Source: a virus
Lineage: Duplodnaviria > Caudoviricetes
Virus record (IMG/VR): IMGVR_UViG_3300027898_000001
Direction: 5' to 3' (one strand)
DNA length: 64,000 bases
Shown in pieces: positions 4,200 to 48,947 of this stretch. The notes beneath the pieces are model-generated. The model searched no databases. It saw only the letters and a program-made list of their open reading frames with translations, and was not told the origin of the DNA. The position numbers and the translations under genes are program-made. Numbering within the stretch: the stretch's first letter is position 1; each line of letters starts with the position of its first letter.

Positions 4200-4973
4200 A
4201 TGCTAACAAAAACGCCCGTATCTATGATAGGTGTTGGAGCAAATGCTCAACCAAAAGATCAATTGGTGTATAATGGTTCTGCGGTAGAAGCCCAATCTCC
4301 TAGTAGTGGACAGCAGCAAGATATTTATGTTTCTAGTGCTAAGTATAATAGTGATACAGGTGTGTTAGAATTAACGCGCTCAGATTCTACTATACTTCAA
4401 GTTCCAGGATTTATGACTGTAGCTAACATAGGTGTAGGTCCTAGAGGTTCAACTGGGCCTCAAGGTAATCCAGGCCCTTCTGGACGCAATGGTAAAGATG
4501 GTGCTAATGGTATTCCAGGTTGTACTGGACCAAAAGGTGATGCTGGTCCTATTGGTCCTGCTGGGGCTTCTGGTACTTTGGGTTCTATTGGTCCTCAAGG
4601 TGCTACTGGCCCTGCCGGTCCTACGGGACCTCAAGGCCCTGCGGGTACAGATGGTGCTAGTCCTATATACACAACTAGTGCTACGGCATCTAGTGAGAAG
4701 ATGAGCACAGGCCGCGTTATGCAATGGGGTAGATACACGGATGCTACTGTGGGTCAAATAAAAACTGTTTTACTACCTAGTGCGCTTACTGCTTCTGTAG
4801 ATACTAATGCCTTGAGCTTTGTCCTGCAATGGATTGATCCAACTTCTGCGGTCGCAAATAAAGTTGGTGTGACTACAATAAGCAGCGGCTCTGTAACTCT
4901 AACCGCAGATAATGGTTTGTTAGCAGGTGCGGCTGCAACTGGTTGGGATTTCTATTGGTACTTGGTGCAATAA
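4200..4973 (+). CDS. Collagen-like tail fibre protein with a C-terminal gp53-like fibre-tip beta domain
   Basis: 25 GXY triplets and C-terminal MQWGRY...LP motif. Start moved from 4113 to ATG 4200 (RBS AAGGT, homology to the 160..666 N-terminus, no overlap with 4022..4189). Confidence 0.85.
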
Positions 4974-15925: not shown

Positions 15926-16723
15926 TCAACTTTCATTATGCACATCCTGATAACTTACAATGAACTTCGCTTTGCGTAACCAGTGATCGGCTAAGCATCG
16001 CATACAAGTGTGAGCAGATCGCGTACAATCACCATCGTGTTCAGCTTCCATCCAAACCATAAAATTAGGAACGCTAACACTACCTATATTATCACCGTCT
16101 TCGTGTGGCTCATCAATCTCATAACTGGCGAGAGCTAATGCAAGTTTTAAGATACGATTATCTTTAGCATCACGATTATCGAGTTGAGACCGTTTAATAG
16201 GATTTTCTTCAGGTTCAAATGGTACTACTATTGGATGACCATTAAAACTTTCAGATTCAGTTATTTTAGGTGTATGTTCTTCGTCAATAATACCTACAGA
16301 AATAAATGTAGTATCACGATCTACGATAACTCTATTTGCTGTTCCTAAATGCGATAGTTTTATTGTAGATACTGTTGACTCAGATACAATAGTAGCACTT
16401 GTGATTGTCGCAATATTTTGTAAAGCACCTTTTCTTAACTCACCGAATCCTGGTGCTTTACACGCAACTACTCTTATGTAACCACGTATCTTATTCACTA
16501 CTAGCGTAGATAACGCCTTGCCTATAATATCCTCAGCAATAATAATCAGTGGACGTTTTGAATTAATAACTTCCGTTAGTATAGGAAGAAAGGGTTCTAT
16601 TTCGTTGAGTTCTCCATCAACTAATAAAACATACGCATTTTCAAACACTACGTTCAATTCAGAATCGTTGTTAATAAAGTAAGGTGATAAGTAACCTTGA
16701 TCGAAACGTGTCTCGTCTATCAT
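15926..16723 (-). CDS. groEL: GroEL apical-domain-only protein fused to a Cys/His-rich C-terminal domain
   Basis: Residues ~1-145 align with E. coli GroEL ~191-337 (FDQGYLSPYF, LIIIAED, ALSTLVVN, KAPGFG, DTT). No equatorial ATPase domain. C-terminal HDGDC-x5-C-x2-C. Confidence 0.9.
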   Translation of the reverse strand: MIDETRFDQGYLSPYFINNDSELNVVFENAYVLLVDGELNEIEPFLPILTEVINSKRPLIIIAEDIIGKALSTLVVNKIRGYIRVVACKAPGFGELRKGALQNIATITSATIVSESTVSTIKLSHLGTANRVIVDRDTTFISVGIIDEEHTPKITESESFNGHPIVVPFEPEENPIKRSQLDNRDAKDNRILKLALALASYEIDEPHEDGDNIGSVSVPNFMVWMEAEHDGDCTRSAHTCMRCLADHWLRKAKFIVSYQDVHNES

Positions 16724-17535
16724 TGCCGTATCTCGTATTTATCAAGAATATGTTTAACAAGAGGTTTATTACTTGGTGTGCGAGTCAGACAATCAAAATC
16801 TATATCAACATCTGTTTTGCATTTCACCAACTTGTAGGACAGTCGCAAGTTATCTAATTGCTCTGATAACCTTTTACCTGTCGCACCCTTAATGTTGTCT
16901 ATATTAGCAACAATATTTTTCAGAGTACCATACTCTTTAATGAGCTTTAGTGCAATTACATCACCAACGCCGTACACACCAGGAATATGGTCAGTCTTAT
17001 CACCTTTCATTGCAAGAAAGTATGTTACTTGTTTTGGTGTTAAGCCTTTCTCTTCCAATAATGATTTCAACGTAGTACGTTTCTGTGCCTTAGTATCAAG
17101 CAAATCTACATACTTGGAAATAAACTGTGCGCAGTCTTTATCGCCAGTTAGAATTGTAAGCTGCATTTCATTTTCAGTGTAGTGCTTTGCAATAGTACCA
17201 AGAACATCGTCGGCTTCAACACCTTTTATATTCAACACTGGAAGTCCAAACGCGCGACATAGTTTGCGGATAATAGGTTTCTGTACCTTTAGGTCGTCTG
17301 GACACGGTTTGCGATGCAGTTTGTAATCGGCATATAAATCGTAACGGAAGTTTCTACTCTCATGGTCAAATGTCACGATTATGTTTTGCTGTTCACGTAA
17401 CAAAGGTTTTATCATGTGATAGAAGAATGTGATAACGCCAGTTGGTTCACCCTTTCTAGTAGTCAATTGGGCTTTGAAACTAGCGTAGTATGCACGGTAC
17501 AAATAGTAGTTACCATCTAGTACTAGAGTGCGCAT
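16720..17535 (-). CDS. 5'-3' exonuclease / flap endonuclease (PolA N-terminal-like)
   Basis: LDGNYYLYRAYY, FD...FR..LY..YK..R, EADDVLGT, TGDKD..Q and GDKTDHIPGVYGVG motifs. No polymerase domain. Confidence 0.92.
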   Translation of the reverse strand: MRTLVLDGNYYLYRAYYASFKAQLTTRKGEPTGVITFFYHMIKPLLREQQNIIVTFDHESRNFRYDLYADYKLHRKPCPDDLKVQKPIIRKLCRAFGLPVLNIKGVEADDVLGTIAKHYTENEMQLTILTGDKDCAQFISKYVDLLDTKAQKRTTLKSLLEEKGLTPKQVTYFLAMKGDKTDHIPGVYGVGDVIALKLIKEYGTLKNIVANIDNIKGATGKRLSEQLDNLRLSYKLVKCKTDVDIDFDCLTRTPSNKPLVKHILDKYEIRQ

Positions 17536-18035
17536 TATTTGACAACCGTTAATGTTGGTTTAGCTGGGAAGTGAGAGTTCTCGAAAAACTCTTTAGATTC
17601 TTTCTTGTTATATTTGGACGCAAGTGGATTAGGAATAATGTATATGGGTTCGCTTGGAGATCCAAAGTTATACTCAAAGTAGAATGCTTTATCCTCAGAG
17701 GGTGCAGAATCACCGGTGCTAACGCCAATAATATTCTCTAATGGCAATACACAGCGGAAAGGAACACCGTTAAATGTTGTGTTGAATGCAATAACAGCGT
17801 TCTCATAATCTATATTGTAGTTCGTCATGGAACGTGTCGCAGCACGTAGCGTTACTTTTTTACGATCTTGTAGGGATTTTGGTAATGATAGTTCGACTGG
17901 AGATAATAGGAGTATTTGGGCGCGCGAGAAACTAGGCTTTCTTGACAATTGTATATGTGGGTCGTAACCCATCATAGACAACATGTTGATGTGGTTTTGT
18001 ACTACTTCGATATTGGTGCAGAACTGTTTTAACAT
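17535..18035 (-). CDS. sspB: SspB-like ClpXP adaptor
   Basis: FNTTFNGVP...LPLENI resembles SspB FNARFGGxP...VPLxAV. C-terminus KPTLTVVK resembles the ClpX-binding tail RPALRVVK. Confidence 0.75.
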   Translation of the reverse strand: MLKQFCTNIEVVQNHINMLSMMGYDPHIQLSRKPSFSRAQILLLSPVELSLPKSLQDRKKVTLRAATRSMTNYNIDYENAVIAFNTTFNGVPFRCVLPLENIIGVSTGDSAPSEDKAFYFEYNFGSPSEPIYIIPNPLASKYNKKESKEFFENSHFPAKPTLTVVK

Positions 18036-18044
18036 GATTATCGC

Positions 18045-18079
18045 CTGTAAATATAGTTAAGTTCATAGTATATTTACAG
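18045..18079. repeat. 11-bp perfect inverted repeat upstream of the sspB operon (operator or promoter hairpin)
   Basis: CTGTAAATATA (18045-18055), 13-nt spacer, TATATTTACAG (18069-18079). Confidence 0.6.
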
Positions 18080-18149
18080 TATTTGTAGAAAATGGTTTAT
18101 CCCCAGAGTACAAACTACTAGCAATAGGATGATGTGTATAACCTAATGT

Positions 18150-18405
18150 TTTCGCTACAACAGTACAGGCAAGGATGCTGTGAGTATAGCTGAACCCTAT
18201 TGTACGCGGTCATTTGGGTGGATTTTTCACTCACCCCGTCATACAACAACTGTGATAAACCTGCGAATGATTAACGGCTCTACGCTGCTCTAATGCAACG
18301 CCTTACAATAAAGCATAAGGTTCGCTTACCGAGTACGTGTGATCCTTCTTAATGCAAACCACCTAGATCACGCAACGCATGTACTAATGCTATCGCTCAC
18401 TTCCA
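18150..18405 (-). ncRNA. Structured ncRNA candidate, copy 1
   Basis: Intergenic. Shares four ordered sequence blocks with 19388..19570. Predicted closing stem GCATTAGTACA/TGTACTGTTGT and internal hairpins. Ends are approximate. Confidence 0.6.
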
Positions 18406-18407
18406 AC

Positions 18408-18773
18408 TCAAGCTATTCTTGCACGTCTACGACTTTCAAATTCTTGGAATCTTGTTGTGTAGAATTCATCGTAATGTTCTTCCAATTTATGGACAGCATT
18501 TTCAATTATTTCTACAATATTTTGTACCTGAATTTTCTTAGATTGTTGTGTTATAGGTTGTTCGTCTAACCAAATCGTTAACCATTCTTTTAGTTCGCGT
18601 GCAACTTCTTTGGCATCATTTTTACACACAACAATATATTTATGTAAGTCTGAGAATACCAAACCTTTAGTGTCACTACCAACACGATGGTCTATGTAAT
18701 ATTCTGTTTTTGTTTCTTTGTGTGTTACAGAAACTGAACCACCATCACGGTGCATTGCTATATAAACTGTCAT
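18408..18773 (-). CDS. Hypothetical protein
   Basis: Co-oriented, overlaps the upstream stop (ATGA). Confidence 0.65.
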   Translation of the reverse strand: MTVYIAMHRDGGSVSVTHKETKTEYYIDHRVGSDTKGLVFSDLHKYIVVCKNDAKEVARELKEWLTIWLDEQPITQQSKKIQVQNIVEIIENAVHKLEEHYDEFYTTRFQEFESRRRARIA

Positions 18774-19108
18774 TCAATATTTCTCGGTTCGTAACAGGTA
18801 ACGTAATCTTTGCAACGATCTGCACACAGATTAAGCATTTTACGGTGATATTCGTTTTCAGTTTTCTTGGCCCATGTAATACAATTAACTGCCAATTCAT
18901 TACAATCTTGTTCTGATACAGATAATCTACCCATAACTGTATCGTAAACAGGTGCACCTATCATACCTAATGATTCACAAGCAATACCACCGCGTATCAT
19001 GTACCGCTTTTTATTGAACTCGAATAATACCGAACCACCGTCACGCACGGTACGAAATTCAGGGTATTCAATTTCTTCATTTTTAGGTAAGGTTATGTCA
19101 ATATTCAT
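18770..19108 (-). CDS. Hypothetical protein
   Basis: Coupled ORF in the minus-strand operon. Confidence 0.65.
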   Translation of the reverse strand: MNIDITLPKNEEIEYPEFRTVRDGGSVLFEFNKKRYMIRGGIACESLGMIGAPVYDTVMGRLSVSEQDCNELAVNCITWAKKTENEYHRKMLNLCADRCKDYVTCYEPRNIE

Positions 19109-19323
19109 TTTGCTAATCTCTTTCTAGCAGAATCGCACAATGCCATCATTTGACTGCGTACGGTAAACCATTCACCTTCCGGTACTCTTGTATCTGTTCT
19201 ACCTGCTAGAGCATACATACGGTTTATATCACGACCTAAGAATAAAGCTCTTTGCGTAGCGCAATGTATTTCACAATAACCGATAAATTCTTCATCAGTC
19301 ATTTCATTATCTTGTTGTGTCAT
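19105..19323 (-). CDS. Hypothetical protein
   Basis: RBS AAGGTG, coupled to the next gene. Confidence 0.65.
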   Translation of the reverse strand: MTQQDNEMTDEEFIGYCEIHCATQRALFLGRDINRMYALAGRTDTRVPEGEWFTVRSQMMALCDSARKRLAK

Positions 19324-19387
19324 AATACACCTTATCTAAGTGAAATTAAAAATGATTGTTCCTGTCACAAATATCTTTCGATAAGTG

Positions 19388-19570
19388 TAGGCTACAGCAG
19401 TTGGGCGGAATCGGAGTATACCGAACTACCAGACATAACAATCTGCGGTTGATTGACGGCTCTGCGCCTTTCGGGAGTAGGATAAAGACGCTTACCTAGT
19501 TGAATGAGGTTGAAACATAAGAACCTAAGTAAGTCCGCATACCGTGCAGTTTAGCTACGCTGTTACAACA
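19388..19570 (-). ncRNA. Structured ncRNA candidate, copy 2
   Basis: Intergenic. GGTAAGCG, CGCAGAGCCGTCAATCAACCGCAG, GTTCGGTATACTC and CTGCTGTAGC occur in the same order as in copy 1. The stem GCGTCTTT/AAAGGCGC uses a G-U pair that forms only on the minus strand. Confidence 0.6.
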
Positions 19571-19633
19571 ACCATATTTCCGAAGCGTAGTCACCATACC
19601 TATGTTTTAGGTGAATGTGAAACTGCAAACACT

Positions 19634-29331: not shown

Positions 29332-29765
29332 TCCTCTTTCAAACTTGTGCCATGGTACATTGGAACGGGACCATGCACATAGAATCGTGAGTGTGTTTCA
29401 TACGACCAAATTTCTTGACCGAAATATTTCCAACTACCTTTTAACTTGCATTGCTCGATAGTTTGTTCTCCAGTTTGCTTTGAAATAAGATAATAAAATT
29501 TACCTACTTCAAATTCATCCGCTTTTAATACCTGAGGCACATAAAAATGTTTACACAGATCATTTAGTGCTTTTTCTTTTTCGTCATCTAACACTAAATG
29601 TATAATACCATTTGGATATACAATAGAGTGTATACATCGGTCTTGATTAGATTCTACGCCTCGACTGTCTTTACTGCGCGTAATGAACGGACCTTTACGA
29701 GTTAGTGGATTAGAATAGTAAAATCCGTCAGGTCTACTATTTTCTAATGTTGGATCGTTTATCAT
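29328..29765 (-). CDS. Hypothetical protein
   Basis: Coupled ORF. Confidence 0.6.
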   Translation of the reverse strand: MINDPTLENSRPDGFYYSNPLTRKGPFITRSKDSRGVESNQDRCIHSIVYPNGIIHLVLDDEKEKALNDLCKHFYVPQVLKADEFEVGKFYYLISKQTGEQTIEQCKLKGSWKYFGQEIWSYETHSRFYVHGPVPMYHGTSLKEE

Positions 29766-29785: not shown

Positions 29786-30052
29786 TTATTTACAGTTTTC
29801 GCAATAAACTACTTTTGCAATTATAGGTCGATTTACATGCAAATAAAGCTCAGAAGCAGGTAATCTATTATTTGGAAGCGTAAAAGGTGGTCTACCTAAA
29901 TCACCATACCAAGTACATATAGCAGCATAAGTAGGATTACGATAAAACCATTTATTGCACTGAATGCAGCGCCACTTTTTGTGTACACGAAAGCTGGCTA
30001 ATAAATTTTCTTCCATCGAATTTATTCCTAGAAAATAACTTGTGTAATTCAC
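29786..30052 (-). CDS. Possible small Zn-finger protein (start uncertain)
   Basis: CIQC and CENC pairs. Overlaps the 3' end of the AAA gene. Confidence 0.35.
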   Translation of the reverse strand: MNYTSYFLGINSMEENLLASFRVHKKWRCIQCNKWFYRNPTYAAICTWYGDLGRPPFTLPNNRLPASELYLHVNRPIIAKVVYCENCK

Positions 30053-39377: not shown

Positions 39378-39385
39378 TATTTACA
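39378..39385 (-). promoter_or_regulatory. Candidate phage promoter TGTAAATA
   Basis: The same 8-mer occurs on the minus strand in spacers at 18071-18078, 43861-43868 and 50064-50071. Confidence 0.4.
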
Positions 39386-39447
39386 GTATTTATTACTAAT
39401 AATTTAAACAGCTCATAGTTCTTGAGCATTTTTATAGGAAACTGAGT

Positions 39448-48723: not shown

Positions 48724-48947
48724 ACTTCCTTAACCTCGATTCTGCGAGCAAGCTCCAATGAATTTCCAGAACTATCAAATTGCAAGGAAGTTCTGTTATC
48801 AGAATATCCTAATACTCTATGTGTTCTAGCGCATACCATCTTATTTACAGCTATGTGATTTGCATTCACTATTTCAACTTCTTGTCGAATATCACTGAAC
48901 GTGCGGCGTCTGCGTCCTTTTAATCTTTCTACAACGTCTGCTTCCAT
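48720..48947 (-). CDS. Hypothetical protein
   Basis: Coupled ORF. Confidence 0.5.
   Translation of the reverse strand: MEADVVERLKGRRRRTFSDIRQEVEIVNANHIAVNKMVCARTHRVLGYSDNRTSLQFDSSGNSLELARRIEVKEV

Follow-up and report, generated by a model that had tools for sequence, protein, structure and literature searches.

Conserved structured RNAs between cistrons of an uncultured freshwater jumbo phage and its relatives

Two RNA copies at the locus and their homologues

The stretch of phage DNA analysed here (64 kb, IMG/VR record IMGVR_UViG_3300027898_000001; hereafter the window) carries genes on its minus strand from ~15.9 kb onward. Among them lie two minus-strand gaps free of open reading frames (ORFs), at 18036–18407 (372 nt) and 19324–19633 (310 nt), each of which holds one copy of a conserved non-coding structured RNA, likewise on the minus strand. 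Measured from the 5′ strand of the helix termed P1 to the 3′ strand of the helix termed P6, copy 1 (type A) occupies 18094–18385 (~292 nt), although its start may lie nearer the upstream stop codon (18408–18410), and copy 2 (type B) occupies 19354–19627 (274 nt). Three small ORFs of 72, 112 and 121 aa, without family assignment, separate the two copies (18408–19323, minus strand). Directly downstream of copy 1 is an SspB-like gene (17535–18035, minus strand), the product of which has no Pfam match itself and aligns with syntenic proteins of related phages that match PF04386. Beyond it lie a 5′–3′ exonuclease gene of the FEN family (16720–17535, minus strand) and a 265-aa ORF (15926–16723, minus strand) that overlaps the exonuclease stop codon and corresponds only to the apical-domain part of GroEL (PHROG profile positions 190–343 of 540; Pfam Cpn60 score below threshold).

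Judged against Rfam 15, the two copies very probably belong to a real and new family of structured RNA, found in this uncultured freshwater jumbo phage and its relatives. None of the 4227 Rfam models matched anywhere in the window at the gathering threshold, in agreement with an earlier note on this DNA, made from the sequence alone, that had recognised no known family. Relaxing the limit to E values of up to 10 gave four chance-level matches (best E 6.1), none over the conserved core, and ARAGORN found no tRNA or tmRNA in the window. A 21-nt core string, AGAGCCGTYAATCAWYCGCAG, part of the second block that the earlier note had seen in both spacers, occurs exactly twice in the 64 kb, against an expectation of 0 from 100 shuffles.

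Relatives were found with the exonuclease, which is recorded on a contig of 260,268 bp, as marker: nine homologues, 48–61% identical, led to the loci L001, L002, L003, L142, L143, L224 and L226. Ten full copies of the RNA are known in all, two each in the window, L003 and L142 and one each in L001, L002, L143 and L226, together with a 3′ fragment in L224. The eight full copies outside the window occupy syntenic spacers of six related metagenomic phage contigs; all copies lie near the SspB and exonuclease genes, in the orientation of the genes flanking them. At every full locus a spacer of ~300–360 nt occupies the corresponding position, immediately before the SspB-like gene or, in L001, before a 97-aa ORF that stands in for it. 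A second spacer, separated from the first by three or four small ORFs, lies upstream of it in L003 and L142, as it does in the window; the conserved core is present in all of these spacers. Family members are ~270–310 nt long. The earlier note had proposed that the two spacers of the window hold two paralogous non-coding RNAs that have diverged while keeping their structure and that share four blocks in the same order; all four blocks are where it had placed them, and the ten homologues, with compensatory changes in several helices, bear out the proposal.

The RNA is far better conserved than its neighbours, in that the SspB-like proteins are only 18–33% identical among phages while the RNA core has 21 invariant positions. 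Core identity, moreover, is higher between the two copies of L003 (76%) than between L003A and L142A, the copy in the equivalent position (66%), a hint of gene conversion between copies within a genome.

Searches beyond these loci returned no further member. A covariance model of the 5′ core (model R1; the earlier note had suggested building one from the two window copies) was made from the same ten copies and scores copy 1 at 62.8 bits (18255–18339) and copy 2 at 90.8 bits (19437–19552); applied to 138 kb of the relatives' loci it found no additional copy. The nearest cultured relatives are distant (Pseudomonas phage PaBG, with a baseplate hub 33% identical, then Lu11 and Erwinia phage Y3), and the whole PaBG genome gave no match to R1. 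More distant SspB-bearing phage loci (L453–L456) have no copy of the RNA. At the DNA level the 2.5-kb region has no match in the INPHARED phage collection, and querying IMG/VR with the proteins of the SspB-like gene and of the small ORFs identified no relatives; the best IMG/VR match to an exonuclease profile was 36% identical and lacked the RNA. Word-based protein searches with two SspB-like proteins recovered only self-matches, and a profile search added no clade members with retrievable DNA. IMG/VR, JGI metagenomes and GTDB genomes (bacterial and archaeal, one genome per GTDB species) were also scanned for the core pattern; once filtered on the upstream S1+S2 motif and scored with R1, the matches listed included no copy and were chance matches inside genes. 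The core string alone is not diagnostic, because an exact match of 21 nt lies inside a long amidophosphoribosyltransferase-like (purF) ORF of GC-rich metagenome contigs (L067:2190–2254 and L043:4149–4198). The RNA family appears specific to a few uncultured jumbo phages that form a small clade distantly related to PaBG, and so narrow a known range, with all seven contigs from that clade, is a weakness of the present set. Among the sequencing runs listed, the spacer occurs in one DNA run, of a freshwater metagenome that is probably its source, and in no RNA run.

Core, junction and flanking domains

In the ten-copy alignment of the core the 21 invariant positions comprise the triplet CGG, part of a helix termed S2, and the strand CG-N-AGAGCCGU-N-A...AUC...G-A. 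S2 is formed by the five nucleotides that follow CGGY-NN (GCGRR) and the five that precede the final AG, with four Watson–Crick pairs in 10/10 copies. Changes on both sides of the helix are seen at three positions (U-A replaces G-C in L142A and A-U replaces it in L003B, and the fourth pair, otherwise G-C, is A-U in three copies), and RNAalifold recovers S2 in the type-B trio. Copy 1 has GCGAA at 18321–18325, covarying with UUCGC at 18263–18267; in copy 2 the strands are GCGGA (19534–19538) and ACCGC (19445–19449), of which CCGC is paired.

In every copy the 38–96 nt from S2 to the sequence NAGA are taken up entirely by two abutting hairpins, which leave no base unpaired on either side of them or where they meet. 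Hairpin A (18301–18320 in copy 1, CCUUAUG/UGUAAGG; 19491–19533 in copy 2) has a stem of 6–10 bp that differs in sequence in every copy. Hairpin B (18283–18300 in copy 1, CGUUGC/GCAGCG; 19465–19490 in copy 2, CGUCUUU/AAAGGCG) starts with CG and ends with CG, and its third pair is often U.G, as in copy 1; its stems, too, all differ. On this comparative evidence S2, hairpin A and hairpin B make up a perfect three-way junction without linker nucleotides. Two hairpins that the earlier note had named are real, CCTTA/TAAGG of copy 1 being hairpin A and GCGTCTTT/AAAGGCGC of copy 2 being hairpin B. Its first block was placed correctly in copy 1; the copy 2 counterpart it gave, GGTAAGCG (19496–19489), is the junction of hairpins A and B, and the true homologue is CGGTATGCGG at 19544–19535.

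The strand that joins hairpin B to the 3′ side of S2, NAGA-GCCG-UNA(0–2 nt)AUCR, is invariant (UAGA-GCCG-UUAAUCA at 18268–18282 in copy 1, CAGA-GCCG-UCAAUCA at 19450–19464 in copy 2). Its GCCG (S1′; 18275–18278 and 19457–19460) is complementary to the CGGY (S1) that lies 2–3 nt 5′ of S2, and which reads CGGU in both window copies (18328–18331 and 19541–19544). Pairing is possible in 10/10 copies, as CGGU/GCCG with a U.G pair in eight and CGGC/GCCG with a C-G pair in two, and S1 with S1′ would likely form an H-type pseudoknot, of which the segment in copy 1 at 18328–18331 is the proposed 5′ strand.

An alternative pairing of the core was rejected. RNAalifold on the ten-sequence core alignment picked a nested GCG/CGY helix instead of S2; that helix has U.U in L142A and A.C in L003B, exactly where S2 covaries, and shows no compensatory change. 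The earlier note had likewise read GGTAA-GCG[stem]CGY-AGAGCC as a UAA/GAN-type internal loop, which the covariation of S2 contradicts.

Upstream of the core, most copies have a helix, P1, the 3′ strand of which runs straight into S1 and the sequence of which differs among phages. It would close a variable 5′ domain, D1, which is put forward tentatively. Copy 1 has AGUAC (18385–18381) and GUACU (18336–18332) around GUGAUC/GAUCAC (18371–18366/18344–18339), giving a tentative D1 at 18332–18385. In type-B copies P1 encloses two hairpins: in copy 2, where D1 spans 19545–19627, UGCAGUUU (19627–19620) and AAACUGCA (19552–19545) surround them, an arrangement repeated with different sequences in L003B and L142B.

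Downstream of the core, the 3′ domain, D3, is closed by P6, in which a strand of 7–8 nt lying one A after the 3′ strand of S2 pairs with a strand 80–160 nt further on. The helix is perfect in 10/10 copies and has eight different sequences; a 7-nt Watson–Crick complement is present in 9/10 copies, against 0.12 expected from shuffles, and in 0/10 at each of eight control offsets. In copy 1 the strands are GGUUUAUC (18254–18261) and GAUAAACC (18094–18101, followed by AUUUUCU), and in copy 2 GAUUGUU (19437–19443) and AACAAUC (19354–19360, followed by AUUUUUAAUUU, with the start codon 30 nt downstream). P6 leads into an asymmetric internal loop (A opposite GG in eight copies) and then into a covarying helix, P6a; 7/10 copies also have a hairpin, P7, and a single-stranded CU-rich motif, UCCUUGC or CCUCCU, lies inside D3. 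The P7 of copy 1, L226, L003A and L142A has a conserved 11-nt loop on a GGUG/CAC stem, and these four copies have both P7 and the CU-rich motif of copy 1 in common. For L001, L143 and L002, RNAalifold recovers P6, P6a and P7, with compensatory changes in 22/55 predicted pairs; MAFFT and RNAalifold applied to all ten 3′ domains misaligned the ends and gave no usable result. By eye, the CU-rich motif has no consistent pairing with the loops of D1 or hairpin A.

The D3 interior of copy 1 (18102–18253) contains P6a (CAG/CUG, with the A/GG loop) and P7 (18246–18200, inner pairs GGGUG/CACCC, 11-nt loop); that of copy 2 (19361–19436) contains P6a (UGUC/GACA, with the A/GG loop), a CU-rich stretch and a GNRA hairpin, UAUC-GAAA-GAUA. 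The third and fourth of the shared blocks also lie within these interiors. They are homologous between the window copies and may pair with each other, as a hairpin around a CU-rich loop (AUCCUUGCC in copy 1), a tentative structure put forward for this genome's two copies only.

Across the alignments, then, covariation is seen in S2, in both hairpins of the junction and in P6, P6a and P7. Absence of covariation and descent from a protein-coding gene were among the findings by which the earlier note had said its proposal would fall; compensatory changes are present, and every copy has 2–12 stops in each of the six frames. Length differences among copies are located in hairpin tips. The strand is that of the flanking genes, as had been proposed: conserved U.G pairs, in S1 and at the third pair of hairpin B, are A.C mismatches on the opposite strand, and these wobbles are workable on the minus strand alone. 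A read-through, frameshift or ribosome-hopping signal was also considered and rejected, all frames being closed.

Placement of the RNA between cistrons

The RNA starts 0–22 nt past the upstream stop codon, and its 3′ end, the 3′ strand of P6, lies 24–31 nt from the next start codon in 7/10 copies. It thus takes up the whole space between the preceding stop codon and a point ~12 nt short of the next Shine–Dalgarno sequence. A separate promoter would have no room there, and the RNA is therefore transcribed along with the neighbouring genes in one polycistronic mRNA. There is no terminator in 8/10 copies.

Copy 1, L003A and L142A have an extra 30–50 nt between the RNA and the gene, with the motif CTGTAAATA (TGTAAATA in L142A) and a hairpin. 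In the window this promoter-like motif lies at 18071–18079 (minus strand), between copy 1 and the SspB-like gene and inside an AU hairpin. It recurs on the minus strand of the window at 29787–29795, 39378–39386 and 48842–48850, and in the relatives at L001:5548, L002:4693 and 7084, L003:4927 and L143:876. The motif stands on the coding strand in short gaps, mostly 11–45 nt upstream of gene starts (in the window, those at 29765 and 39367), resembles the T4 late promoter TATAAATA and probably represents a class of phage promoter. In L001, L002 and L143 it takes the very place that the type-B RNA has in L003, L142 and the window; the 289-nt spacer after the DUF4326 gene in L143 (858–1145), for example, has no copy of the RNA and carries CTGTAAATA and then CTGTAAAC.

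Two loci have strong hairpins resembling intrinsic terminators at this point (L003:4930–4975 and L142:4625–4670), each with an 11–13 bp stem and a U tract, after (C)TGTAAATA and before the ribosome-binding site of the SspB gene. It is unusual for a terminator to come immediately after a promoter, and these hairpins may be 5′ stabilisers or insulators.

Elsewhere in the window, at 446–540 and 4446–4660 on the plus strand, two ORFs contain direct repeats rich in GGT, CCT and CAA that look like collagen-like Gly-X-Y repeats; they probably encode tail fibre or other structural proteins.

Candidate mechanisms and comparison with known RNAs

The function we infer, as the most likely of several and still a tentative choice, is that of a cis-acting decay barrier or processing module. 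The RNA would act on its own transcript as a compact folded unit, forming a barrier to 5′-end-dependent decay or a processing point on the mRNA, and downstream cistrons would be left with a protected, structured 5′ end. In favour of action in cis are the placement of the RNA abutting stop codon and ribosome-binding site, its constant orientation, and a topology like that of the exoribonuclease-resistant RNAs (xrRNAs) of flaviviruses.

In the flavivirus xrRNA the 5′ end (S1) is paired with a P1–P2–P3 junction, creating a ring that stops 5′–3′ nucleases (PMC7749634). Class 1 xrRNAs have their elements in the order S1, P1–P2–P3, a junction strand pairing with S1, P1′ and a downstream stacked helix (PMC7749634), and the proposed fold of the phage RNA has the same order. 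Both also occur as tandem or duplicate copies in one genome, and the three-way junction is present in 10/10 phage copies with no linker bases. The likeness is one of topology only, there being no sequence similarity and no Rfam match, and the phage RNA differs further in being intergenic in the mRNA of a DNA phage rather than part of the 3′ untranslated region of an RNA virus. Position between cistrons, co-transcription with them and, plausibly, an effect on mRNA fate are shared with the intercistronic processing sites and 5′ stabilisers of phage mRNAs, such as the RNase III sites of T7 and the leader pseudoknot of T4 gene 32; those are single hairpins or small pseudoknots, however, with no invariant multi-helix core.

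Several points weigh against a decay barrier of this kind, or against the fold on which it would depend. The phage RNA is 3–4 times larger than a flavivirus xrRNA, with D1 and D3 in addition, and a barrier of the xrRNA type leaves both domains unexplained. There is no consistent L3–S4 pseudoknot: the loops of hairpin B match the joining strand over 3–5 nt in some copies, as judged by eye with no systematic search for other partners. Variation in S1/S1′ is one-sided only, so that the pseudoknot is compatible with the data, not proven by them. Single-sequence folding energies are no better than those of shuffles (z −0.5 and −1.0), and in just 6/10 copies does the sense strand fold more stably than its complement, which is not decisive; the case for an RNA rests on comparative evidence, not on thermodynamics. 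Finally, with a promoter-like motif downstream of the RNA in copy 1, L003A and L142A, transcripts from there would bypass it.

A stable RNA acting in trans, or a scaffold for a ribonucleoprotein, is predicted by a second explanation, which seems rather unlikely. Excision from the polycistronic mRNA would release it with P1 and P6 at its termini, and it might, for example, bind a phage or host protein, the ribosome or RNA polymerase, or serve as an anti-defence decoy. The large multi-domain fold with ends defined by closing helices, and an invariant single-stranded core conserved to a degree that the proteins encoded alongside do not approach, would suit such an RNA, as would the variety of downstream genes (SspB-like, the 97-aa ORF in L001, small ORFs for type B), the terminator-like hairpin with U tract that follows in L003A and L142A, and the promoter-like motif that separates the RNA from the next gene in three copies. 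Against this, the RNA lacks a dedicated promoter and, in most copies, a terminator, no gene for a partner protein is consistently adjacent, and a position between stop codon and ribosome-binding site is what one would expect of a cis element.

A regulated leader, in which the core would bind a small molecule or protein or would modify RNA polymerase by antitermination, is likewise improbable. Invariant junction nucleotides amid variable peripheral hairpins are aptamer-like, and the RNA stands directly upstream of ribosome-binding sites. For antitermination, the models are the put RNAs of phage HK022 and the EAR RNA of Bacillus, cis-acting structured RNAs in long operons, EAR being intercistronic; HK022 has two diverged put copies per phage, putL and putR. 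The phage RNA shares their genomic logic, with cis placement in an operon and, as with putL/putR, two copies in one long same-strand gene block. It is, however, much larger than put (~70 nt, two hairpins) or EAR (~120 nt), has as its proposed fold a pseudoknotted three-way junction that both of them lack, and has no sequence or model match to either, no Rfam family having scored. An expression platform is no better supported: terminator-like hairpins follow the RNA in just 2/10 copies (L003A and L142A), a point that would favour regulation there, and the other eight have no terminator or anti-terminator. Masking of the ribosome-binding site through the CU-rich motif was rejected, as duplex energies between the RNA and initiation regions were no better than with shuffles or with the initiation regions of other genes, and no sequestering duplex beyond shuffles was found. 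Nor do the downstream genes, the SspB-like gene, the 97-aa ORF and unrelated small ORFs, have a common theme or point to a pathway. Metabolite riboswitches are normally widespread in cells, whereas no copy was seen among the bacterial and archaeal matches listed from GTDB, all of them chance matches in genes.

A new ribozyme, for instance one that cleaves itself and so cuts the polycistronic mRNA between cistrons, is quite unlikely. Small self-cleaving ribozymes are common in phage operons, and a core that is likely pseudoknotted, invariant unpaired nucleotides and intercistronic location would fit one; yet no model of a known self-cleaving family (hammerhead, twister, twister-sister, hatchet, pistol, HDV-like or glmS) matched at E values of up to 10, the RNA is far larger than known self-cleavers, and no conserved candidate cleavage site was identified. 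That there is no RNA element at all, and that the similarity reflects a DNA-level signal, a decayed gene or chance, is very improbable: the unremarkable single-sequence folding energies speak for it, and against it stand at least five helices kept by compensatory changes across ten copies, U.G pairs that become A.C mismatches on the other strand, insertions and deletions confined to hairpin tips, and stops in every frame.

A group I intron, to which there is a superficial likeness, was rejected. Strings of the intron core resemble the second and third shared blocks, with AAUCANNCGCAG like a Q element and GUUCAG... like an R element, and there is a P4-like covarying helix with a 2–3-nt J3/4-like linker. 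The topology, however, is wrong, in that the P3-like partner GCCG precedes the P4 3′ strand (it lies between hairpin B and the 3′ strand of S2) and there is no P7/P3/P8 arrangement. The 3′ domain has one closing helix, P6, and the Rfam group I model did not match. Exons are wanting as well: SspB-like proteins align from their own first residue, upstream ORFs differ among phages, and the flanking ORFs are complete.

The ten copies have clear boundaries, a compact invariant core and natural variants that amount to ready-made compensatory mutants, and are therefore suited directly to synthesis, probing and cryo-EM. Should the RNA indeed block or direct decay, DNA phages would shape the fate of operon mRNA by folded RNA topology, and the module would be a portable stabiliser or insulator part. 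It is possible, if on the doubtful side, that these copies are the first members of a hitherto undescribed class of functional RNA, large and pseudoknotted, in DNA phages. It could prove to be the first phage ring of the xrRNA type to shape polycistronic mRNA decay or, alternatively, a ribozyme of a new kind or a binder of host machinery. The nearest precedents are OLE, GOLLD, ROOL, raiA and HEARO/omega RNA, large, multi-domain RNAs supported by covariation and without assigned function at discovery, several of them associated with phages or prophages. All of these are in Rfam and none scored against the phage RNA, which is smaller than GOLLD, ROOL and OLE and confined to one phage clade. New large classes supported by covariation are rare, and OLE, GOLLD, ROOL and HEARO each led to unexpected biology.

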